Shown piece by piece: positions 6,255-26,232 of a DNA stretch of 29,994 bases. The DNA lies in contig DATLTH010000649.1 in assembly GCA_035533695.1 (NCBI GenBank), positions 1-29,994 on the forward strand, read 5' to 3'. The stretch comes from Stellaceae bacterium. Lineage in GTDB: Bacteria > Pseudomonadota > Alphaproteobacteria > ATCC43930 > CGMCC-115725. Position numbers and translations under genes: made by a program. Positions within the stretch are counted from its first letter, which is position 1, and every line of letters begins with the position of its first letter. The notes beneath the pieces are model-generated. The model ran no database searches. It was not told the DNA's origin and saw only the letters and a program-made list of their open reading frames with translations.

Positions 6255-8270
6255 TCAGAACGACGGCAACAGGTCGTCGCGGCGGTCGCCTTCGTTCATC
6301 GCATGGGCGCGGCCAACCGCCTGGTCGAGGGCCAGCGACTCCGCCGGATCGTCGCCGTCGTCCGCGACACCCGATTCCACATCGGGCTCTGGTGCACGCT
6401 GCACTACCGCGGCCTCGGGCAACCCGAGATGCCGCAAGCGCCGCAATCCGCCCTCATCAGCCTCGCCGTCGAGCTCGCGCGCGACCGCGGCCTGGAGCCG
6501 CAGGTCCGTGCCGCGCACTCGCCCGGTCCAATCATCGGGGCGCGGCGGCGGCCGGTCGCGATAGCCGTCGGCCGCCAACTCCGGCGGCAGCATCCTGCGT
6601 CCGGCAAAGTTCTCGTCCTCGTAGTAGCGCAGCTTGCGGGCGCGGATCGGCGGTAGGCCCGAGACCAGGACTAGCTCTTCGTGCGGCGGCAGCTGCATGA
6701 CCTCGCCTGGGGTCAGCAGCGGCCGGGCCGACTCCTGACGTGAAACCATGACGTGGCTGAGCCACGGCGCCAGGCGATGTCCGGCATAGTTGCGCTGCAG
6801 CCGCAGCTCGGTCGCGGTCCCGAGCGCATCCGAGATACGCTTGGCGGTGCGCTCGTCATTGGCCGCAAAGGCGATGCGGACATGGCAGTTGTCGAGGATG
6901 GCGTTGTTTTCGCCATAGGCCTTGGCGATCTGGTTGAGGGACTGGGCGATCAAGTAGGCCCGGATGCCGTAGCCGGCCATGAAGGCAAGCGCGGTCTCGA
7001 AGAAGTCGAGCCGCCCCAAAGCCGGAAGCTCGTCGAGCATCATCAGCAGCCGGTGCCGCCGCACCTTGGCGGGGTCGCCCTCGAGCTGCTCGGTGAGCCT
7101 GCGGCCGATCTGATTCAGCACCAGCCGCACCAGCGGCTTGGTGCGGGAGATATCCGAGGGCGGGATGACCAGATAGAGCGTCACCGGCCGCTCGGCGTCC
7201 ATCAGATCGGCAATCCGCCAGTCGCAGGCGGTCGTGGTCTGGGCGATGACCGGGTCGCGGTAGAGCCCGAGGAATGACATCGCGGTCGACAGCACGCCCG
7301 AGCGCTCGTTCTCCGACTTGTTGAGCACCTCGCGCGCCGCTGAAGCCACCACCGGATGGACGGCCGGATGATCGGACGTGCCGAGATGGTTGGTCGCCAT
7401 CATCCGGCGCAGCGTGTGCTCGAACGACCGCTGTGGGTCGGAGAGGACCGTCGCGACTCGGGCGAGGGTCTTGTCTTGCTCGGCGTAGAGCACGTGCAGG
7501 ATCACGCCGACCAGCAACGCGTGGCTGGTCTTCTCCCAGTGATTGCGGCGGTCAAGCGCCCCTTCGGGATCGACCAGGATGTCGGCGATGTTCTGGACAT
7601 CGCGCACCTCGTGCGGCCCCTGGCGCACCTCGAGCAGCGGGTTGTAGCGCGCCGAGCGCGGATCGGTCGGATTGAACAGCAGGCAGTGCGAGAAGCGCGA
7701 CCGCCAGCCTGCCGTCAGCTGCCAGTTCTCGCCTTTGATGTCGTGGACCACGGCGCTCTCGGTCCACGACAGCAGGGTCGGGATGACAAGGCCCACCCCC
7801 TTGCCGCTGCGGGTCGGCGCAAAGGCGATGACGTGCTCCGGCCCGTCATGGCGCAGATAGCGGTCCTGCCAGCGCCCCAGGAACACGCCCGCCGGCTCGA
7901 ACAGCCCGGCGCGCTCGATCTCCTGACGATTGGCCCACCGCGCCGAGCCGTAGGTGGTGACGAGCCGGCTCTGCCGCGCCCGCCACAGCGAGCCGATCAC
8001 CGCGACGACGATCCCGGCGAACCCACCGGAAGCCGCGATAACCCCCGCCTCATTGAACAGCGCCGGGGCATAGCCGTCGTAGACGTACCACCACTCGAAG
8101 AGCCGCCAGGGGTAATAGACCGGCCACGACAGCAGCACGAACCACGGCGCCCCAAGCGGCGGCTGGTAGCCGAGCTGCGCCGCGGCCCACTGTGTCGCCA
8201 GCCACAGCCCGCCGATGACGATGGCAAAGACGACGGCGATCTGGCCGAGGAGGAACTTGGTGGGCGTCAT
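6255..8270 (-). CDS. traG: Type IV coupling protein TraG (VirD4 family), 671 aa
   Basis: MTPTKFLLGQI start, YGSARWA, Walker A APTRSGKG, DIKGENW, LMLDELPALG, QSLNQI. Confidence 0.95.
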   Translation of the reverse strand: MTPTKFLLGQIAVVFAIVIGGLWLATQWAAAQLGYQPPLGAPWFVLLSWPVYYPWRLFEWWYVYDGYAPALFNEAGVIAASGGFAGIVVAVIGSLWRARQSRLVTTYGSARWANRQEIERAGLFEPAGVFLGRWQDRYLRHDGPEHVIAFAPTRSGKGVGLVIPTLLSWTESAVVHDIKGENWQLTAGWRSRFSHCLLFNPTDPRSARYNPLLEVRQGPHEVRDVQNIADILVDPEGALDRRNHWEKTSHALLVGVILHVLYAEQDKTLARVATVLSDPQRSFEHTLRRMMATNHLGTSDHPAVHPVVASAAREVLNKSENERSGVLSTAMSFLGLYRDPVIAQTTTACDWRIADLMDAERPVTLYLVIPPSDISRTKPLVRLVLNQIGRRLTEQLEGDPAKVRRHRLLMMLDELPALGRLDFFETALAFMAGYGIRAYLIAQSLNQIAKAYGENNAILDNCHVRIAFAANDERTAKRISDALGTATELRLQRNYAGHRLAPWLSHVMVSRQESARPLLTPGEVMQLPPHEELVLVSGLPPIRARKLRYYEDENFAGRRMLPPELAADGYRDRPPPRPDDWTGRVRGTDLRLQAAVARELDGEADEGGLRRLRHLGLPEAAVVQRAPEPDVESGVADDGDDPAESLALDQAVGRAHAMNEGDRRDDLLPSF

Positions 8271-8303
8271 GCCGGCACGCGCAAAAACATGCCAACAGGA
8301 ATC

Positions 8304-8334
8304 AACGGCGGCCCCCAAAAGGCCAATCGCCGTT
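8304..8334. promoter_or_regulatory. Inverted repeat AACGGCG-N17-CGCCGTT in the divergent traG / membrane-gene intergenic region
   Basis: 7-bp perfect arms at 8304-8310 and 8328-8334, 34-64 bp upstream of the traG ATG. Binding protein unknown. Confidence 0.3.
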
Positions 8335-9542: not shown

Positions 9543-9866
9543 CTATGCCGCCTTCACCGTATGCGCCTGAATCTCGACCCTGAGCTTCTTGCGCACGACA
9601 CGGAGGATCGCCGCGAGATTGTCCATGGTCGGATTGCCGTTCTTCGACAGCATGCGGTGCAAGCTCTTCGCCGGCATGCCCGTGGCAGCGGCAAGCGTTT
9701 CAAAGCCGACGGCCGCATTGACGAGGTCGCGCAGCACAAGGCGCGCCGTGTCCGCCTCGCCGTTGAGGAACAGCGTGGCAGCCTCATCGAGCATTGCTTT
9801 GGCAAAGGCCGGATCGCGTCGAACCCGCTCGACGATCGTCTCTTTGAAATCCCGGGTCAGCGCCAT
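9543..9866 (-). CDS. HTH antitoxin of a toxin-first type II addiction module, 107 aa
   Basis: MALTRDFKETIVERVRRDPAFA, then HTH GFETLAAATGMPAKSLHRMLSKNGNPTMDNL. Starts 5 nt after the toxin stop. Confidence 0.85.
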   Translation of the reverse strand: MALTRDFKETIVERVRRDPAFAKAMLDEAATLFLNGEADTARLVLRDLVNAAVGFETLAAATGMPAKSLHRMLSKNGNPTMDNLAAILRVVRKKLRVEIQAHTVKAA

Positions 9867-9871
9867 GCCAT

Positions 9872-10219
9872 TCACCTCTTGCCTTTCGCCTTTGCCGCCG
9901 CCTTGCGGGCTTTGTATTCGGCCCACATCGCCTTCGCCCGCTCGATGTCCACCTGCTGACGCTGCTTGGTACCGCCACCGAGCAGGATGATCAGCGACTC
10001 GCCGTCTTTCCCGAGATAGATCCGATAGCCCGGCCCCCAATCGATACGGCACTCGCCGATGGTACCGATCCATTTCACCCGCGAGGTGTTGCCCAGCTCC
10101 AGCCGCTCCACGGCCGTGGCAACCTTCGCAGCCGCCTGAGCATGCAGGCTATCGAACCAAGCCCGGTACGGACTCGATCCATCTTCCCGAATGTATTCGA
10201 CGACGGTCAGCGTGCCCAT
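9872..10219 (-). CDS. RelE/ParE-superfamily (HigB/Gp49-like) toxin, 115 aa
   Basis: WFDSL, IGECRIDWGPGYRIY, IILLGGGTKQRQQVDIERAK are typical of addiction-module killer proteins. Confidence 0.88.
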   Translation of the reverse strand: MGTLTVVEYIREDGSSPYRAWFDSLHAQAAAKVATAVERLELGNTSRVKWIGTIGECRIDWGPGYRIYLGKDGESLIILLGGGTKQRQQVDIERAKAMWAEYKARKAAAKAKGKR

Positions 10220-10222
10220 ATA

Positions 10223-10238
10223 GTCACATATACGTTAC
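10223..10238. promoter_or_regulatory. Candidate TA operator, imperfect palindrome GTCACATATACGTTAC
   Basis: 12/16 self-complementary, in an AT-rich patch 3 nt upstream of the toxin ATG. A TTGATT hexamer lies just upstream on the minus strand. Confidence 0.45.
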
Positions 10239-10290
10239 CATTAATCAAGGTCCAGTTCTATGATGACATCGCGGTCGTGGGCCAGTTCCG

Positions 10291-10318
10291 ATTTCGGCTT
10301 TGGGTGGAAAGCGGACAT
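10291..10318 (+). repeat. 28-bp 11-6-11 site A: ATTTCGGCTTT-GGGTGG-AAAGCGGACAT
   Basis: Inverted 11-bp arms (9/11 complementary) around an asymmetric 6-bp core. Related to site B. Confidence 0.7.
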
Positions 10319-10389
10319 AAGGTCCTTCGCTGATGATCTTCGCTTCAGCGCGCCTGCTGGGGAGCCGCGCGTTCTCCTGACCGCCGGTC

Positions 10390-10974
10390 TCAGCCGTGCA
10401 CTGTCTCGTGGCGCTCAAGCATGCCGATGAAACCGGCGATCTTCCGCGCTCGCGTCTCTGGCTTCTTCACCGTTTCTATCCGGTAGAGTATCGCGTAGCG
10501 ATTGGCTCCGGTCAGCGTTGCGAAGAAGGCTGCGGCCTCTGGGCTCTGATCGAGTGCTGCTTGAAAATCGGGCGGCACCTGGGCCTTGCTTGCAGGTGCA
10601 TATGCAGCGTCCCACCTGCCGTCTGCCCGAGCAGCCTCGATTTGCGCCAGTCCACGTGGGCGCACTCGACCAGCCGCGAGCAGTTCTTCTGCACGCGCCC
10701 GGTTCACCTGCGACCATTTGCTACGAACCTTCCGAGGCGTGAAGCGAATGAGCCAGGACGCATCGTCATACTTATCGAGCTGGCCATCGATCCAGCCGTG
10801 GCAAAGCGCCGCATCGATGGCCTCAGTCTTCGTCACGCTCTCGATGCCAGAGTGCGCCTTCGCTAACTTAATCCAGAGCCCTGGCGAGTTGGCGGGCTGC
10901 GCCTCCAGCCAGCGTTCCAGAGCCGCAAGATCGTTGAAGGCGATAATCGGTAGGCCGGCGCGTTCTTCGGTCAT
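10390..10974 (-). CDS. YdeI/OmpD-associated family protein, 194 aa
   Basis: EAIDAALCHGWIDG, RFTPRK.RS.WS..N, DGRWDAAY, VPPDFQAAL, YAILYRI...KKPETRARKI. Confidence 0.85.
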   Translation of the reverse strand: MTEERAGLPIIAFNDLAALERWLEAQPANSPGLWIKLAKAHSGIESVTKTEAIDAALCHGWIDGQLDKYDDASWLIRFTPRKVRSKWSQVNRARAEELLAAGRVRPRGLAQIEAARADGRWDAAYAPASKAQVPPDFQAALDQSPEAAAFFATLTGANRYAILYRIETVKKPETRARKIAGFIGMLERHETVHG

Positions 10975-11024
10975 GCAACAGTTCCATGGAAGCCTCGTAT
11001 CAGCGGCGATCGAGGATTCGCTTC

Positions 11025-11052
11025 ATGTCCGCAATGGGTCGAGAGCCGAGAT
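11025..11052 (+). repeat. 28-bp 11-6-11 site B: ATGTCCGCAAT-GGGTCG-AGAGCCGAGAT
   Basis: Same architecture and core orientation as site A, 734 bp apart. Its left arm is complementary to the right arm of A (9/11, including ATGTCCGC). Confidence 0.7.
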
Positions 11053-11080
11053 TCATACTAACCCACTACCCATCACGCCG

Positions 11081-13051
11081 TCATGAAATCTCCCGCCCCT
11101 TGCGCTCGCGGCCGAGCGCCCAGGAAATCGACTCGCCACGCGCGACCCCGGAGACGTGCTTGCCGAGGTTCCTCTCCAGCACCGGACGCCACGGCACCAG
11201 GGTAAACTCCCGGCCTCTTTCGACGAGCGCGAACCGGCCACTCGCGAGATCGACCCGACGCCGATAGACGCCCTCGATGCGCCGGCCGGGCCGAAGTTCG
11301 GTGTAGTCGAGCCCGAGTTCGTCCGAGAGCTGCGCGCCGATGCGAGCCAGCTCGCGCCGGCGGAGCAGACTGAGCAAGTTCACCCGATAGACGATCCGAT
11401 CTTGTTCGGTTTCAGCAAGATCTTGCTCGATGAGCCATCGCCGACGCCGTGCGAGCGCCTCACGCACTTCGTTCCCGAATCCCCTGTCACTGACGGCGGC
11501 GGGCTTCTCAGCCATGAGTTCGCGATCAAGCCAGGTGGCACCGTCGGCTCGGATCTGGCGATCGAGCGGCAGTGTCGACAGCGCCTCCACCAGCACTGGT
11601 GTCATCCGAGCCTGTGCACGCTCGTAGGCGGCGGTACGCTCGAGATGATCGGGCGCGATGATCCAGGTGCCATCGGGCTGCCGCTCGACGCCCACCTTGG
11701 CGCGGCGCATCGCTTCGAGCCGGCGCACGTGGGTTTCCGCCAATGCCGCCGTTGCCGACGGATCATGCCGCAGATGGATGTCGACGCTATAGCGGCCCCG
11801 CGTTGCAGCCGCGATCTCAGCAACGGTGCGGTCGACACGGCGTGGCGCCACCGGCTTGGGCTCGATGGCGACGATGGCGCCTTCTGGAGTCGGCTCGAGG
11901 GCATCGGCCCTGCCGATGTCGACGTAATGCGCGCGGCCATCCACGCCAGCGACGATGAGGTAATGGTGATCGTTAAGCTCGTCTGAGAGGCCGCGTCGGA
12001 TGACCCGTCCGACCAGCCGCTCAGGCTTCGGATCGGCCGGATCGTAGATCGCGATGTCCGGCATCAGAGGCGGCCTGCCCTTACCTGCCAGTTCGTGATG
12101 GAGCGCCTTGATGATGTCGCCGCGCTCGCCCATGCGGCGGAGCACCGGTTCGAGGTCCGCTGCAAGACGCCAGCGCGATGGCGCAATCTCCTCGACCAGG
12201 CCGAGCCGCTTCAACTTCTGCAGCCGTCCTGCCCTGAGAGTCTGGTGAAAGGCGTCATCGGCAACCGTTCCGGAGCGGACGATCCCGTCCGCGTCCGCTT
12301 CGCGCAACAGCCCGCGGTCGAGGCTGGTGAAACGCTCCTGCTCGATCTCGGCACGGAGCCTGGCTTCGATCTGCCGGTTCGTGCGTGGGCCGAGGTCGAG
12401 TGTCACGACCTCGGCGGCACGCTCCCGCATGCCTTGGGTCAGGTACTCGCGCGCAATGATCAGATCCTTGGCGCGCTCGTCTTTACCCCTGAGCACGACA
12501 TGGGTGTGCGGATGACCGGTGTTGTAGTGGTCGACGGCGACCCAATCGAGCTTGGTGCCGAGGTCCGCCTCCATCTGCCGCATGAGCCGCCGGGTGAAGC
12601 CCTTGAGATCGTCATATTCGATCGCATCCTCCGCCGAGACGATGAATCGGAATTGATGCCGGTCGCCGTCGCAACGCTCGAGAAAAGCCGGACCATTGGC
12701 GCGATCATGCTGAGCGTCATAGAGGTCGCCGGGCAGCCCATCGCGGGTAACGCCGTCGCGCTGCAAGTAGCGGAGATGGACCTGGGCACCCTTCAAGCCA
12801 CGGCCGGCGAGTTTGATGAGCCGAGCCTTTACAATCACACGCCGGGTCCGGAAGGCAGCATAACGGTCACGGGATCCGAGTACCCGGCCGACGCCAGCGC
12901 CGCGGCCGATCCGGCTACCACTGAAACGACTCCGACGTCGTCGGCCACCGGCCGCCGCGACGCCCCGCTTCACCGCGCGCAGATAGGAACTGCGCAGCTG
13001 GCGATTGCCGATGCGACCGAGCCTTGGCTCGAAGTCATCATCGCGGCTCAT
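11081..13051 (-). CDS. rlxS: Relaxase RlxS/VirD2-like (MOBP type with DUF3363-like C-terminus), 656 aa
   Basis: HLRYLQRDGV (motif I Tyr), HQFRFIVSAED, DWVAVDHYNTGHPHTH (HUH), C-terminal LVPWRPVLERNLG. Confidence 0.92.
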   Translation of the reverse strand: MSRDDDFEPRLGRIGNRQLRSSYLRAVKRGVAAAGGRRRRSRFSGSRIGRGAGVGRVLGSRDRYAAFRTRRVIVKARLIKLAGRGLKGAQVHLRYLQRDGVTRDGLPGDLYDAQHDRANGPAFLERCDGDRHQFRFIVSAEDAIEYDDLKGFTRRLMRQMEADLGTKLDWVAVDHYNTGHPHTHVVLRGKDERAKDLIIAREYLTQGMRERAAEVVTLDLGPRTNRQIEARLRAEIEQERFTSLDRGLLREADADGIVRSGTVADDAFHQTLRAGRLQKLKRLGLVEEIAPSRWRLAADLEPVLRRMGERGDIIKALHHELAGKGRPPLMPDIAIYDPADPKPERLVGRVIRRGLSDELNDHHYLIVAGVDGRAHYVDIGRADALEPTPEGAIVAIEPKPVAPRRVDRTVAEIAAATRGRYSVDIHLRHDPSATAALAETHVRRLEAMRRAKVGVERQPDGTWIIAPDHLERTAAYERAQARMTPVLVEALSTLPLDRQIRADGATWLDRELMAEKPAAVSDRGFGNEVREALARRRRWLIEQDLAETEQDRIVYRVNLLSLLRRRELARIGAQLSDELGLDYTELRPGRRIEGVYRRRVDLASGRFALVERGREFTLVPWRPVLERNLGKHVSGVARGESISWALGRERKGREIS

Positions 13052-19958: not shown

Positions 19959-20748
19959 TCAGTGCAGGAATTGCCGGTAACCACCCACCATCAGCGCCCG
20001 CCCGCGGGCGACGGCGCGCCGGACCCGATCCAGCAGGTGACGGCGCGGGTCGGTCCAGTCGGTCGCGACGCGCTTAGCACCGAAGACCGCCACGGCAATC
20101 TCGCGATACGAGGCATCGGCGAGCCAGCCATCGAGCGCTTGCAGAACGACGCTCAATCGGCGCCCGCGCGGATCGGGTGGAAAGTACTGCGGTCGTAGCC
20201 TGCCGTGGTGATAGAGGTCGCTGAGACACGCCAGCAGCCTGTGCTGCGCACGGCGATCTGTCTGCGACGGGAGCGCATCAGCCAGGAGGTGAACCGGGTG
20301 TAGGACGCTGGCGCCGGTAACCGCCAGTTGCAGCGAGCGGCCTCCGTCCCGGAACAGAAGATGTTGTGTTCCGTCCGGCGCCAGCAGAAGTGTCGCGGGG
20401 CACGGAATCGCCGCCAACCGAAATGCGCTCAGCCGCGCAAATGAATTAGCCGGCAGCGCGATCATGCGGAGCACATATCGGCAGACGTCCGGATCCCACG
20501 ACACGGAGGCTGCAGTCGCATCGATCGCTGGTGCGTCGGCGAAACATCAATCCCCACTCGCGCAGGCGGCCGTTGTGCGGGGTCGTTATGATCGTTAACG
20601 CGCGCAGCGATGCGTCGGTGACGGTTCGGCTCGATGTGTCGAGCCAGGCGCCGTGAAAGTCCGGGTTGCGGCGGAGAAACTCCCACGCCCAGCCCTTGCG
20701 CGGCAGCGCGTCGATCGGGTCGTAGGTTTCGCGGCGGCGCCAATCCAT
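19959..20748 (-). CDS. fseA: FseA transcriptional activator encoded by msi172/msi171-like ORFs joined by a +1 programmed frameshift, predicted 262 aa
   Basis: ORF1 has WAWEFLRRN (DUF6499-like). Slippery motif GAG.TGG.GGA.TTG.ATG.TTT.CGC at 20559-20539. The +1 frame is open into the DUF2285 ORF (LQALDGWLADASYREIAVAVFG...GYRQFL). Confidence 0.88.
20539..20559 (-). promoter_or_regulatory. +1 programmed ribosomal frameshift site
   Basis: Matches the msi172 consensus SRV.TGG.GGN.NTN.NNN.TTT.CSY at every position. Confidence 0.88.
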
Positions 20749-20855: not shown

Positions 20856-21488
20856 TTAGGCCGCCTCAACGATCACCGGCGCCCAGAGCGCCGGACTCGT
20901 GATTCCGCCCCCGTTGCGTATGCGCAGGAGCGCTGCGGTCGAGACCTCGAGGTAGCCCGCAACCGCCAGGGTGTTGCCGATCGCCCGGGGCTCCGCGATC
21001 CGGCGCAGCGGCCAGCCGGCACGGCGCAGGATGCGTTCCATGCGGGCGTCGGTCACGGTGACAATATCGGTGAGCCGCCGCGACAGGCCGAACTCGATCA
21101 TGCCGGCAAAGAGCTCGAAGGTCGCGACCGCGATACCGGTCTCCGCCTTACGCGCCTCGGGCGGCAGGTCGAGCGCGAACCGGCTGCTCTCCCAGAGCGA
21201 CGCAACAGCCGGCACTTGGCTACTGCCCAACAGCGATGGGAACACGTCGCGCAGCATGGTCGGCCCGGTCGATGGGAGGAGGCGGACACAGCCTTGGAAC
21301 GACCCATCCGCGCCGCGTTGCAAGAGATACGCCGGGTGCAGCGCGTCGAATTCGTCGATCTCGAGATCGCCGCTGACTTGGACGTCCCAGTGGAGACGGT
21401 CCTTGAAGACGCGGTAGCGCAGTCGGTGCATCGCAGCGAGCTCGTTGACAAACTCGCCGTAAAGCTCCGACGTAATGAGCTGCATCAT
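20856..21488 (-). CDS. traI: Acyl-homoserine lactone synthase (LuxI family), 210 aa
   Basis: MHRLRYRVFKDRLHW, EIDEFD, GCVRLLP, WESSRF. AGGAGG SD. Confidence 0.95.
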   Translation of the reverse strand: MMQLITSELYGEFVNELAAMHRLRYRVFKDRLHWDVQVSGDLEIDEFDALHPAYLLQRGADGSFQGCVRLLPSTGPTMLRDVFPSLLGSSQVPAVASLWESSRFALDLPPEARKAETGIAVATFELFAGMIEFGLSRRLTDIVTVTDARMERILRRAGWPLRRIAEPRAIGNTLAVAGYLEVSTAALLRIRNGGGITSPALWAPVIVEAA

Positions 21489-21581: not shown

Positions 21582-22304
21582 CTAGCAACCTAGCGGCTGC
21601 GATGCGGCGAAGCGGGCGACGGCCTGGCAGACCGACCGAACGCCGAGTTTGGCCTTCGCATTCTCGAGGTGAAAGGCGGCGGTCCGCCGTGAGACGCCGA
21701 TAATCTGCCCGATCTCCCAGGCGGATTTGCCGCGGGCCGCCCAAGCGAGACATTCGTACTCGCGCGGCGACAGCGCGACGCCATCGACGACACGTTCCGA
21801 TGCGAGTTTACGCCGGGCATGCGCATGGAAGTACATCGCCATCAGCTGCAAGGTGGGGCCTTGCTTCTCGATCGCGTGCCGAAAGGCGGCGTGCGGCACA
21901 TCCGCGGCGAAGGTGACGGCGGCAACCGGACCACGAGAGTCATGGATCGGTACGGTGAAGCCACAGCGAATGCCAAAAGCGGCAGCCTCCTCGAACAGCT
22001 GTCGCTGGGTGGGAGACCCGTTGAGCGCGACCTCCCTGCCCCATTCGAACGGCTCAGTGGCCCGTAGCGCCGCAACAATGACCGGATCGAACCGCTCGTA
22101 GTGCTGCTTCAAATAATGCGCCGTCCACGCGGGCGGGTACGTCGAAATCAGCTGTGGCGCGCCGCGCAAACGGCTCGGCAAGGCGAGGTAGGCAAAGCAC
22201 GGCACATCGAGCCGTGTCGCTGCCGCCACGATGGTGGCGCGCAGCGATGCGGCATCGGTGCTATTCGCAAGCCCATCGATGAACGACTGGAAGATCTGAT
22301 GCAT
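21582..22304 (-). CDS. traR: LuxR-family quorum-sensing activator TraR, 240 aa
   Basis: AHL-pocket residues in YPPAW, HY, FDPV, FEW. C-terminal HTH LSPREYECLAWAARGKSAWEIG. Confidence 0.93.
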   Translation of the reverse strand: MHQIFQSFIDGLANSTDAASLRATIVAAATRLDVPCFAYLALPSRLRGAPQLISTYPPAWTAHYLKQHYERFDPVIVAALRATEPFEWGREVALNGSPTQRQLFEEAAAFGIRCGFTVPIHDSRGPVAAVTFAADVPHAAFRHAIEKQGPTLQLMAMYFHAHARRKLASERVVDGVALSPREYECLAWAARGKSAWEIGQIIGVSRRTAAFHLENAKAKLGVRSVCQAVARFAASQPLGC

Positions 22305-23574: not shown

Positions 23575-23856
23575 CTTTCCCGTGGCTGTTAAGAGCTTGA
23601 GATCGTCGAGATAGTCAGCCCACCACTGCATCATCTTGACACGCTAGTCCCAAAATTCGCCGCGGGCGTAGGCGCGGCGGACATCGTTGATCTCAATATG
23701 TGCCAGTTGGCGCTCGATGGCGTCGGGATGCCATTTCCCGCATTCGTTCAGCAGGCTCGACGCCGTTGCTCGGAAGCCATGAGCCGTAACCTCGTCCTTG
23801 CCGTAACCAAGCCGTCGGAGCGAAGCATTAAGCGTGTTGTCGGAAATCGGTCGTGC
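23575..23856 (-). pseudogene. 3' remnant of a P4-like/IntS-type tyrosine integrase with an in-frame TAG
   Basis: RPISDNTLNASLRRLGY..EVTAHGFRATASSLLNE..WHPDAIERQLAH..VRRAYARGEFWD*RVKMMQWWADYLD. TAG at 23644-23646; the 5' part of the gene is missing. Left coordinate approximate. Confidence 0.85.
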
Positions 23857-24083
23857 GCCAAGACACTCAAGCCGATCCTCAAGGCCCAAGTTGATGAACG
23901 TTCCTATCTGATGACGGATGATGGTGGTGAATTTCGGAAACTCAAACTTGGCGACAATTTCGGCGGTCGCGGCACCGTCAACCACAGCGCGGGTGAATAT
24001 GTCCGTACTGGCGGTTTCCATCACACAAACACGATTGAAAACTATTTCAGCATCTTCAAGCGCGGAATTACCGGCACCTATCG
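23857..24083 (+). mobile_element. Internal fragment of an IS1595-family transposase
   Basis: AKTLKPILKAQVD..YLMTD..GTVNHSAGEYVR..HTNTIENYFSIFKRGITGTY. Truncated at both ends; boundaries approximate. Confidence 0.8.
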
Positions 24084-24154
24084 CCGACACCACGATCCGC
24101 AACACGGCGAGCCCGCTCGACCGGTTGCGGCTGGAGGTCGTGCCGCCCGCCTGA
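24084..24154 (+). pseudogene. C-terminal tail of an XerD-like recombinase of the type paired with IS91-like transposases
   Basis: TTIRNTASPLDRLRLEVVPPA*, ending 9 nt before the IS91-like ATG. Assignment is from recall of such gene pairs. Confidence 0.55.
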
Positions 24155-24163
24155 TCGGCCACC

Positions 24164-24451
24164 ATGGCGCCCGCGCTGGAGGTGGCGGAGATCTTCCGCC
24201 ACCATGGTGATGCCTATCGCCGCGCGCATGCCGGACGCCTCGGGCGCGTCGAGCGCTGCGTCATAAGCGCGGTCGCGGCGTGCCGGACGGCGTCCCTCGG
24301 CGGCCATGTCGAGCGGTGCGAGGAATGCGGCTTGGTCCGCGTCGCCTACAACTCCTGCCGCAATCGGCATTGTCCCAAGTGCCAAGGCCTGGCTCGCGCC
24401 GAATGGCTCGCCGAGCGCCAGGCCGAGCTGCTGCCGGTGCCCTACTTCCAC
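24164..24451 (+). mobile_element. 5' fragment of an IS91-family transposase (zinc-binding domain)
   Basis: LEVAEIFR, CRTASLGGHVERC..C, YNSCRNRHCPKCQ, LLPVPYFH, then an abrupt loss of similarity where VVFTLP is expected. Confidence 0.85.
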
Positions 24452-24519: not shown

Positions 24520-26232
24520 CTATGGCGCGATGTCGCGCAGGAAGCCGAAATCGCATCCCTGGTCGGCCTGCAGCACCGTATCGAGATAAAGCTTGCGGTA
24601 GCCGCGGCGAGCCTGCGGCGGAGCGGGCTGCCACGCGGCCCGACGACGTTTGAGCTCGGCTGGCTCGACCAGCAGATCGAGCTGGCGCGCGGCAACGCTG
24701 AGGCGGATGCGATCGCCGTTCCGCACCAGGGCAAGCGGGCCTCCCAAAGCTGCCTCCGGCGTCACATGCAGGATGACGGTGCCGAAGGCCGTGCCGCTCA
24801 TTCGCGCGTCGGAGATGCGAACCATGTCCTTGACGCCGGCGCGCGCTAGTTTCGCCGGGATCGGCAGGTAGCCCGCCTCGGGCATGCCGAACTTGCTCGT
24901 CGGGCCGGCATTCTGGAGCACCAGGAAATCCTCGGGTGCTACGTCGAGCGCCGGATCGTCAATGCGACGGGCAAGATCCTCCAGCGAGGAAAACACCACC
25001 GCCCGCCCCTCGCGCTCGAAGAGGCTCTGGTCAGCAGCCGAGCGCTTGAGAATGGCGCCGCGCGGCGCTAGCGTACCGAACAGTGCAACCAATCCGCCGA
25101 CCGGCTCGATGGGCTCGTCAGCGCCGCGAATGACCCGGCGATCGACGAAGACGTTGGTCTCGGCGTCGAGCCTCTCGGCCAGGGTCTCGCCAGTCACCGT
25201 GATGCAATCGAGGTGGAGCTTGGGACGGAGCGCGCGGAGCACCGCCCCCACGCCGCCTGCAGCGAAGAAATCCTCCATGTAATGCGCACCGGTCGGTTTC
25301 AAATTCACCAGAACCGGCGTGGTTTCGGAGAGCTCGTTAAGCCACGCGAGCGAGATTTCGATGCCGAGCCGGCCGGCGATCGCGGTGAGTTGGATGATGG
25401 CGTTGGTCGATCCGCCAACGGCGAGCATGATGCGGAGCGCGTTTTCGACCGCGTTCCGAGTGACGATGCGTCGCGGCGTCAGCTTGCTGGTAGCGGCGCG
25501 CAGTGCTTGGGCACCAGTCGCTTCGGCCGCCCGCAATCGGTCGGCGTGAACCGCAGGAATCGCCGCCGTTCCTGGCAGCGACATGCCGAGGGCCTCGACG
25601 ATGCAGGCCATCGTGCTGGCGGTCCCCATGACGGCGCAGGTGCCCGCTGTCGTAGCCAGATTCTTCTCGATGGCCTCGATCTCCTTAAGTCCGATTTCTC
25701 CGGCGCGATAGCGCGCCCAGAAGCGTCGGCAGTCGGTGCAGGCGCCGAGCCGCTCGCCCTCGTAGCGCCCCGTCATCATCGGACCCGCCACGAGCTGGAT
25801 GGCCGGTATATCGGCTGAAGCCGCCCCCATGAGCTGCGCCGGCACCGTCTTGTCGCAACCGCCCATCAGCACCACGGCGTCCATGGGCTGCGCACCGATC
25901 ATCTCCTCGACGTCCATCGACATGAGGTTGCGGAACATTAAGCTCGTGGGGCTGAGAAAGACCTCGCCGAGCGAGATCGTGGGAAACTCGAGCGGCAGGC
26001 CGCCTGCCGCCAGAACGCCGCGCTTCACTGCTTCGAGCAAGTCGGGAAAGTGCCGGTGACAGTTGTTGAAGCCGCTGGGGGTATAGGCGATCCCAATCAC
26101 CGGGCGCGCCAGTATGTCGCGCGAATACCCCATAGACGCAGCGAATGAGCGCCGCAGATAGAGCGAAAAATCGCGATCGCCGTAATCGGTCAGGCCGCGC
26201 GCTAGCCCGCGCCGGCCCTCATCCTCGGCCAT
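24520..26232 (-). CDS. IlvD/Edd-family dehydratase (sugar-acid-type subgroup), 570 aa
   Basis: FNNCH, GGCDKT, GTCAVMGTAST, GGSTNA, GMPEAG, DMVRISDARMSGT. Confidence 0.92.
   Translation of the reverse strand: MAEDEGRRGLARGLTDYGDRDFSLYLRRSFAASMGYSRDILARPVIGIAYTPSGFNNCHRHFPDLLEAVKRGVLAAGGLPLEFPTISLGEVFLSPTSLMFRNLMSMDVEEMIGAQPMDAVVLMGGCDKTVPAQLMGAASADIPAIQLVAGPMMTGRYEGERLGACTDCRRFWARYRAGEIGLKEIEAIEKNLATTAGTCAVMGTASTMACIVEALGMSLPGTAAIPAVHADRLRAAEATGAQALRAATSKLTPRRIVTRNAVENALRIMLAVGGSTNAIIQLTAIAGRLGIEISLAWLNELSETTPVLVNLKPTGAHYMEDFFAAGGVGAVLRALRPKLHLDCITVTGETLAERLDAETNVFVDRRVIRGADEPIEPVGGLVALFGTLAPRGAILKRSAADQSLFEREGRAVVFSSLEDLARRIDDPALDVAPEDFLVLQNAGPTSKFGMPEAGYLPIPAKLARAGVKDMVRISDARMSGTAFGTVILHVTPEAALGGPLALVRNGDRIRLSVAARQLDLLVEPAELKRRRAAWQPAPPQARRGYRKLYLDTVLQADQGCDFGFLRDIAP

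Follow-up and report, generated by a model that had tools for sequence, protein, structure and literature searches.

In the contig DATLTH010000649.1 of a Stellaceae bacterium (the whole stretch of 29,994 nucleotides analysed is called the window hereafter), a gene of the YdeI/OmdA family lies between two co-oriented 28-bp sites in the variable region of an integrative and conjugative element (ICE). From sequence comparisons, we hold with moderate confidence that this gene is the cargo of a predicted-promoterless, single-gene cassette that was inserted into a pre-existing 28-bp palindrome of the same repeat family, through site-specific recombination with an enzyme acting in trans. From centre to centre, the cassette would measure 740 bp: between its two inner arms lie a leader of 50 nt, the YdeI/OmdA gene and a tail of 71 nt. 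Before insertion it may have been circular, with a single site, ATGTCCGCTTT-CCACCC-ATTGCGGACAT. The target would have been ATTTCGGCTTT-CGACCC-AAAGCCGAAAT, 29 bp downstream of the relaxase gene rlxS in the ICE. Entry would have taken place by reciprocal exchange, either within the 6-bp centre or at one of its borders (the exact cleavage positions are predicted), and the product would be two hybrid sites, each made of one ICE arm and one cassette arm and no longer palindromic.

Two probable hybrid sites around a single gene

The sites and the cassette parts are as follows.

10291-10318, no strand assigned: site 1, ATTTCGGCTTT-GGGTGG-AAAGCGGACAT, downstream of ydeI, centre of type A (CCACCC on the gene strand); outer arm 10291-10301 (ATTTCGGCTTT), putatively from the ICE target; centre 10302-10307; inner arm 10308-10318, assigned to the cassette
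10319-10389, minus strand: cassette 3' tail, non-coding, 71 nt, from the stop codon to site 1
10390-10974, minus strand: YdeI/OmdA-family gene, the cassette cargo, 194 aa, PF13376 at E 6.8e-22
10975-11024, minus strand: cassette 5' leader, 50 nt, present in all cassette copies
11025-11052, no strand assigned: site 2, ATGTCCGCAAT-GGGTCG-AGAGCCGAGAT, upstream of ydeI, centre of type B (CGACCC on the gene strand); inner arm 11025-11035, assigned to the cassette; centre 11036-11041; outer arm 11042-11052, ICE backbone

Both sites have the same 28-bp geometry, with an 11-bp arm, a 6-bp centre and an 11-bp arm. On re-reading of the window, the two 28-mers were found exactly where and as the initial annotation had given them, with site starts 734 bp apart and co-oriented centres (GGGTGG and GGGTCG), and a recount by hand returned the same arm complementarity, namely 9/11 and 7/11 within the sites and 9/11 and 9/11 once the arms are swapped. 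When the window was scanned with a degenerate family pattern (up to 3 mismatches, with 100 shuffles as control), exactly 2 matches were obtained in the 30 kb, both of them the known sites, for a chance expectation of 0.01, and 0/100 shuffled windows reached 2 matches. Between the two sites the cassette holds a single open reading frame (ORF), predicted to be promoterless, since a promoter scan of the gene (minus) strand of the cassette found no promoter-like site. The source genome, a fragmented metagenome-assembled genome (MAG) of 3.56 Mb in 700 contigs (75% complete, 67% G+C), contains no other true copy of the site motif; an extra match on its contig C697 lay inside a conserved coding sequence and was discarded as a site.

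Folding energies of the present and reconstituted sites were the following.

Site 1, present hybrid: -2.0 kcal/mol, z -1.8
Site 2, present hybrid: -1.0 kcal/mol, z +0.7
Reconstituted cassette site: -7.6 kcal/mol, z -5.8
Reconstituted target with the window's own arms: -5.2 kcal/mol, z -3.2
Reconstituted target with the arm of L227 (a related ICE, see below): -9.7 kcal/mol, z -5.1

The present hybrids thus fold no better than shuffles and an arm swap restores the palindromes; as they stand, the hybrid sites appear too mismatched to re-form them. These values also bear on the simplest alternative, in which two unrelated terminator-like palindromes, or ordinary hairpins, flank a gene by chance. 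In its favour, each of the two sites is found downstream of a gene, rlxS or ydeI, on the coding strand. However, the expectation of 0.01 per window, the poor folding of the hybrids, the lack of a T-run after them and the fact that the same sites accompany ydeI in other contexts all speak against coincidence. Statistics, recurrence and folding already contradict this explanation, whose probability we consider next to negligible.

Recurrence of the cassette in unrelated contexts

YdeI homologues with 91-97% amino-acid identity were found in unrelated neighbourhoods on metagenome contigs, giving at least 4 unrelated assembled contexts of the cassette (the window; L009; L010; and L011 with L012 and L013). 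Pairwise similarity between contexts is limited to the cassette alone (653-746 bp, 89-94% DNA identity), starting at the centre of the upstream site and stopping just past the centre of the downstream one. The overall DNA identity of cassette copies, assembled and soil-run contigs together, is 89-100%. On the upstream side, the outer arm reads ATCTCGGCTCT in the window, GGCTGCGCTAT in L009, ATGTTCGCTTT in L010 and ATGGCAGCTTT in L011, and the adjoining CGACCC-ATTGCGGACAT, that is, the centre and inner arm of site 2, is identical in every copy (five copies). On the downstream side, ATGTyCGCTTT-CCAyCC-A is common to the copies, which then diverge into AAGCCGAAAT, TAGCGCACGT or TTCCGGTCAT; the inner arm and centre of site 1 are conserved with ydeI in L010, L011 and the soil contigs, with a different outer arm in each context. 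The 3' tail was also kept with ydeI in L010, L011, L012, L013 and the soil contig X4-16, and L009 has lost both the tail and the downstream site.

In addition, Logan contigs of four soil runs were placed on window positions 9900-11500, three of these runs (X4, X7 and X11) coming from other, independent studies. For the contigs of these three runs, coverage was limited to 10278-11087, with 90-100% identity. Soil contigs exit the window at 10299-10302 with at least 4 different left flanks and at 11035-11048 with at least 5 different right flanks. Because soil contigs and assembled copies diverge at the centres with such varied flanks, the mobile unit appears to run from centre to centre, the inner arms belonging to the unit and the outer arms to its surroundings. 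The idea of a cassette, proposed in the initial annotation from the window itself, is consolidated by the finding of the same gene and inner arms in numerous unrelated contexts, where the breakpoints coincide with the centres of the sites.

More distant YdeI homologues (at most 90% amino-acid identity) had no sites or decayed ones. Since these homologues are without intact sites, ydeI is not always a cassette, and the cassette form would be one young lineage of an ordinary gene. The closest cassette copies come from sources named Sphingomonadales or Caulobacterales.

Some of these contigs provide further observations. The chromosomal stretches of L012 (1390-2170) and L011 (2143) are 97.5% identical and diverge exactly at a site, where L012 has a DUF559 gene bracketed by sites and an A-B doublet and L011 has a hydrolase gene; the common site differs in both arms. 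The rsmE neighbourhoods of 150 genomes of the family of genome G452 were searched for an empty allele of the L011 context, but at 73% identity or less they were too distant to compare. Among short contigs of X4, X7 and X11, some show two inner arms abutted with no cargo (centre-arm/arm-centre) and others show B-A doublets with 7 to 9 nt between the sites; such contigs may represent empty units, junctions within arrays or scars of excision. Joints of the 'skips about 706' kind in Logan contigs were not counted as excision, their sides being just 21-22 nt long and other units being possible sources.

The proposed target site in related ICEs

The genes that bound the insertion are listed below.

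6255-8318, minus strand: traG coupling protein, PF02534 at E 5e-104, at the far end of the variable interval
9543-10219, minus strand: RelE/ParE-type toxin (9872-10219) and antitoxin; homologues named RelE/ParE toxin by their sources
11081-13051, minus strand: rlxS, DUF3363 relaxase of the ICE, PF11843 at E 5e-145, relatives at 84-88% amino-acid identity

Since the flanking genes are rlxS and traG, both identified by profile matches, the ICE variable-region setting named in the initial annotation holds. Two loci, L227 and L228, carry the same kind of ICE, with rlxS at 85-86% amino-acid identity to that of the window. In L227, homology runs through rlxS and its stop codon and then through ATTTCGGCTTT-CGACCC, at the place where the target site starts 29 bp past the rlxS stop codon; 1.75 kb of unrelated DNA (with a DUF6119 gene) follows, and homology is back at GAACTGrCCCACGACC, 2 nt beyond site 1, continuing through the toxin-antitoxin pair to traG. 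L228 has the same breakpoints as L227 and the window, with 5.2 kb of different cargo after A-ACCTGGCTTT-CGACCC. Past site 1, the backbone of both loci is 90-92% identical to the window, from position 10288/10289. The outer arm and centre of site 2 are assigned to the ICE backbone because the homology with L227 and L228 runs through both of them and then stops. Other rlxS relatives (L224 and L226) diverge directly after the rlxS stop codon.

The L227 arm, ATTTCGGCTTT, is the exact complement of the other outer arm of the window, AAAGCCGAAAT, and for this reason the target is reconstructed as a perfect palindrome. The ancestral ICE would thus have carried ATTTCGGCTTT-CSACCC-AAAGCCGAAAT, which the cassette would have split. 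Note that ATTTCGGCTTT has 0 occurrences among the 398 arms of 199 family sites collected elsewhere. The interpretation of the two 28-mers as hybrid attL/attR-like sites, already advanced in the initial annotation, is supported by the recurrence of the cassette, by the ICE-backbone arm and centre in L227 and L228, by the palindromes obtained on swapping the arms and by the existence of a real repeat family. This interpretation predicts an empty allele with one reconstituted site in related ICEs; L227 and L228 keep the half-site arm with CGACCC after rlxS, and no intact empty allele was found. Neither did other routes lead to one: in PLSDB plasmids rlxS reached at most 68% DNA identity and the interval had no close relative, a class-wide sample of RlxS loci (at most 72% identity) had no sites and no empty allele, and a search through homologues of the toxin led to non-ICE contexts only.

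The cargo of L227 (8014-9765) contains the DUF6119 gene, and that of L228 (6722-11945) contains ORFs of 84 aa, 209 aa and 1375 aa, the last with a helix-turn-helix.

The absence of other sites from the source genome makes it probable that the cassette was loaded when the ICE resided in another host (the closest cassette copies being in Sphingomonadales-like soil bacteria) and is now stranded.

A dispersed palindrome family

Using the consensus ATGTCCGCTTT-NNNNNN-AWWGCGGACAT with up to 3 mismatches and the reversed pattern as control, about 19, 32 and 50 family sites were counted in the alphaproteobacterial genomes G081, G122 and G254, respectively, for 0 with the control, mostly as dispersed, intergenic, imperfect palindromes. 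The initial annotation had mentioned similar repeats as abundant in alphaproteobacterial genomes, and the family is indeed real and abundant in some Alphaproteobacteria (19-50 copies in these three genomes). In an even sample of the class searched at up to 1 mismatch, most genomes were without family sites, and in the genus of the window 0-6 core matches per genome were found, versus 0-2 for the control. One genome of this genus (G018) has a lone family site with unrelated flanks at L002 1497-1524, ACGGCCGCTTT-CCACCC-AAAGCCGAAAA, which shares 23/23 bases with window positions 10292-10314, including the unusual GCCGAAA arm. Rfam gave no match on the sites, and full-text literature searches with the arm sequences returned no description of the family, only primers and unrelated matches.

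Two types of centre were distinguished. Contexts with ydeI have CGACCC upstream and CCACCC downstream of the gene, and another single-ORF unit in an Allosphingosinicella MAG is bracketed likewise. In G122 and G254 the pair of centres is TGACCC and TGGCTA. G122 contains a 73-bp inverted-doublet unit, formed by an A site (centre TGGCTA), a conserved 17-nt spacer (often CAGAATCGTGAAAATTG) and a B site (centre TGACCC); 29 such doublets were found (28 in G122 and 1 in G254), and the sites of the window are singlets. The G122 units (L229-L237) form co-oriented rows with 1-4 kb between units, as an example at L230 7226-14855, a tRNA-adjacent island, and the genes between them lie in both directions, many being paralogous adenylate-cyclase/TPR genes.

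Among 123 distinct sites, 935 Watson-Crick pairs were counted between arms, versus 942.5 +/- 8.4 in shuffles. Because the arms do not covary beyond their common consensus, this result suggests that they are kept by a protein reading two inverted half-sites, rather than by hairpin formation.

A family of this kind allows an explanation with no dedicated enzyme, in which the sites are palindromes like the repetitive extragenic palindromes (REPs) and their doublets (REPINs), and the cassette spread through rare homologous, microhomology-mediated or template-switch recombination between copies sharing about 12-17 nt round the centre. The dispersed intergenic copies (19-50 per genome in G081, G122 and G254 versus 0 in the control), the REPIN-like inverted doublets of G122 with their conserved spacer, the coincidence of the breakpoints with the sole stretch conserved among all copies and the failure of the PF00589 and PF01797 surveys to find an enzyme are all compatible with it. 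However, the shared stretch is very short for a RecA-type exchange, yet the same borders are seen in at least 10 independent contexts. Moreover, the upstream site is always of type B and the downstream site of type A, an order that random exchange would not keep, and no other copies occur in the genome that now hosts the ICE with the cassette. Enzyme-free, REP-like recombination is the main rival of the cassette insertion proposed here; weakened by these points, it seems to us unlikely.

Mechanism and search for an enzyme

For the insertion of the cassette by an enzyme acting in trans, the most likely mechanism would be conservative site-specific recombination between the cassette-borne site and the target site. 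As a guess at the enzyme, we favour a tyrosine recombinase, since two inverted 11-bp half-sites surround a 6-bp centre; it would act on these arms with strand exchange at one border of the centre. Exchange at one border is suggested because each centre stayed with its left arm, provided that the CGACCC of L227 and L228 is ancestral. The cassette borders fall within about 10 nt around the centres. By analogy, exchange at one border would be given by one-strand exchange resolved by replication, as in integrons and in CTX-phage integration, or by a nick-and-join enzyme.

The initial annotation had asked whether sites elsewhere bracket single genes and co-occur with a recombinase family. Other single ORFs are bracketed by sites in the Allosphingosinicella MAG, but no recombinase family (PF00589) was tied to site arrays. 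Several candidates were set aside. The window has a single PF00589 signal, 12.6 kb away from the cassette at the ICE end, where only the C-terminal part of an ordinary integrase is left, and the recurrent large genes beside sites in G122 and G254 turned out to be cyclase/TPR cargo. G122 also encodes, at L264 1975-2556 on the plus strand (G122:C22) and 0.8 kb from a family site, a tyrosine recombinase of 193 aa with no domain other than the catalytic one (79 bits to PF00589).

A second type of enzyme was considered through single-strand transposition (HUH/Y1, of the kind of IS200/IS605 insertion sequences or of REP-associated tyrosine transposases, RAYTs), in which a non-autonomous element with a passenger gene would have the B site as its left-end hairpin and the A site as its right-end hairpin. 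Two end types in fixed order round the cargo, the cargo-free B/A units that seem present in soil contigs, the folding of the reconstituted sites as hairpins and the presence of one Y1_Tnp gene each in G122 and G452 would be in keeping with such an element. In contrast, the outer arm of the hairpin stays behind here, and IS200/IS605 ends include the whole hairpin; the PF01797 (Y1_Tnp) profile found no match in G081 (92% complete), G254 or the source genome (G000); the Y1_Tnp genes of G122 and G452 have no family site within 3.5 kb and no flanking hairpin of 8 bp or more; and the arms do not covary. We therefore regard single-strand transposition as quite improbable.

Several observations weigh against the enzyme-driven insertion of the cassette. 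No recombinase gene was found linked to the sites, PF00589 genes being present everywhere and not tied to the arrays, and the 193-aa recombinase of G122 was rejected as the common enzyme, as it has no orthologue in G254, G081, G452 or G000. An intact empty allele, searched as the reconstructed site with up to 3 mismatches, is absent from 243 other genomes of the order, and no circle or excision joint was found in the Logan contigs of the soil runs. The cargos of L227 and L228 are without a recognisable inner arm at their start, and their entries may be of another kind. The approximately 12 nt around the centre that are common to all sites are the only possible microhomology, and breakpoints in this shared part are by themselves no proof of an enzyme. 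At position 2, the centre has G in one site and C in the other, a difference that would be poorly tolerated in a classical two-strand tyrosine exchange. Finally, the doublets of G122 look like REPIN-type repeats spreading on their own.

Comparison with known systems

In pdif modules, a gene is flanked by two sites with arms in inverted order (outer-inner, then inner-outer). The cassette resembles the pdif modules of Acinetobacter plasmids and the integrative mobile elements exploiting Xer (IMEX), with 28-bp 11-6-11 sites, one or few genes flanked, varied contexts and no recombinase gene of its own. Unlike dif and pdif, which have distinct XerC and XerD arms, the family sites have one consensus for both arms, and the window centres are directly repeated and of two fixed types. 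Alphaproteobacterial dif sites are AT-rich, with a G+C of 0.18-0.39 and conserved inner ...ATAA / TTATG... (PMC2731167 Table 1), whereas the family sites are GC-rich (ATGTCCGCTTT-CSACCC-AWWGCGGACAT) and have none of the conserved dif positions in common. The label 'dif-like' used in the initial annotation is therefore valid for the 11-6-11 geometry alone, because arms and centre are unlike alphaproteobacterial dif. The same comparison decides on a Xer-driven module, in which the XerC/XerD of the host would act on the 11-6-11 sites, on the model of the pdif modules of Acinetobacter plasmids: the geometry and the single gene between two sites with arms in inverted order, as in dif modules, agree with it, but the AT-rich dif with inner ATAA/TTATG (PMC2731167), at no position shared by our GC-rich sites, and the single consensus that leaves no separate XerC and XerD arm make it very improbable.

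As in integrons, a predicted promoterless single-gene unit with short recombination sites recurs in different contexts, lies in the orientation of the upstream gene, has cassette and target sites of two types, and is loaded onto a conjugative element; each centre also seems to have remained attached to one arm after insertion, which resembles one-strand exchange. Unlike attC sites, which are 57-141 bp long with R and L boxes (R''-L''...L'-R') and a GTTRRRY core, the sites described here are 28 bp long, have no GTTRRRY and leave half a site on either side of the gene after insertion. No intI, attI or Pc platform was found beside the cassette in the window, where the sole PF00589 signal is the 173-aa integrase remnant. 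Integrons are said to have been reported absent from Alphaproteobacteria by Cury et al. in 2016.

The family also shares with REPs, bacterial interspersed mosaic elements (BIMEs) and REPINs its short imperfect palindromes, intergenic location, multiple copies and lineage-specific abundance, as well as the inverted doublets of G122. According to Di Nocera et al. (2013, PMC3733652), REPs of the GTAG- and CGTC-tagged superfamilies combine 8-9-bp stems and 4-5-nt loops with a CCA tail. The family sites differ in having no GTAG/CGTC tag, no 8-9-bp stems with 4-5-nt loops and no CCA tail. In contrast to REP-RAYT systems, no cognate RAYT is flanked by the sites, and here the repeats are split by a gene-carrying insert whose half-sites travel with the gene.

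In Neisseria, the Neisseria intergenic mosaic elements (NIMEs) and dRS3 are short palindromic repeats that flank small exchangeable units and serve as integration targets, dRS3 being the target of the Piv/IS110-type enzyme of Nf prophages. Short palindromic repeats round exchangeable units are thus common to both cases, but dRS3 belongs to another sequence family and taxon, and no link to a Piv/IS110-type enzyme was seen here. Note that dRS3 has been equated with CGTC-1 REPs (PMC3733652). Overall, judged by sequence, the family is neither dif nor attC nor a described REP class.

Other features of the ICE

The RelE/ParE-type toxin-antitoxin pair occupies the same ICE position in three related ICEs (window 9543-10219, minus strand; L227 9838-10514; L228 12020-12673) with 90-92% DNA identity, and it is also common in non-ICE chromosomal contexts; the partner gene of the toxin is a weak match to PF21716. 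Adjacent genes for a LuxI-type autoinducer synthase and a LuxR-type regulator lie within the ICE (20856-21488 and 21582-22304, both on the minus strand), which may place ICE transfer under quorum-sensing control, and a RovC-like DNA-binding protein is encoded at 19959-20504. The integrase remnant is a 173-aa ORF at 23644-24165 (minus strand), in which the last ~70 residues (HGFR...LAH...VRRAY) correspond to the C-terminal end of a tyrosine integrase; it scored 25.9 bits against PF00589, below the cut-off, its N-terminal part is unrelated, and it adjoins ilvD (24520-26232). This ORF is probably a decayed integrase that marks the ICE end.

Significance

Altogether, we tentatively propose a gene-capture system of Alphaproteobacteria, in which predicted-promoterless cassettes, each with a 28-bp site of a first centre type, would be inserted by a trans-acting recombinase into palindromes of 28 bp that are dispersed and have the other centre type. 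Some of these palindromes lie on conjugative elements, so that single genes would be loaded onto ICEs and exported to hosts without the system. The initial annotation had already suggested integron-like capture with neither attC nor chromosomal dif; the sites are indeed not attC and not dif-like in sequence, and the capture system itself is retained only as this tentative proposal.

The window is an unusually clean case, with a reconstructable target, a cassette found in many contexts and both products preserved, and it offers defined substrates, namely the cassette site, the target site and the two hybrids. It also shows a route for single chromosomal genes onto conjugative elements. Should an enzyme drive the process, integron-style gene capture would have been invented a second time, independently, in a large class of bacteria with no integrons found so far, and it would work with a minimal site of 28 bp and without a linked integrase.

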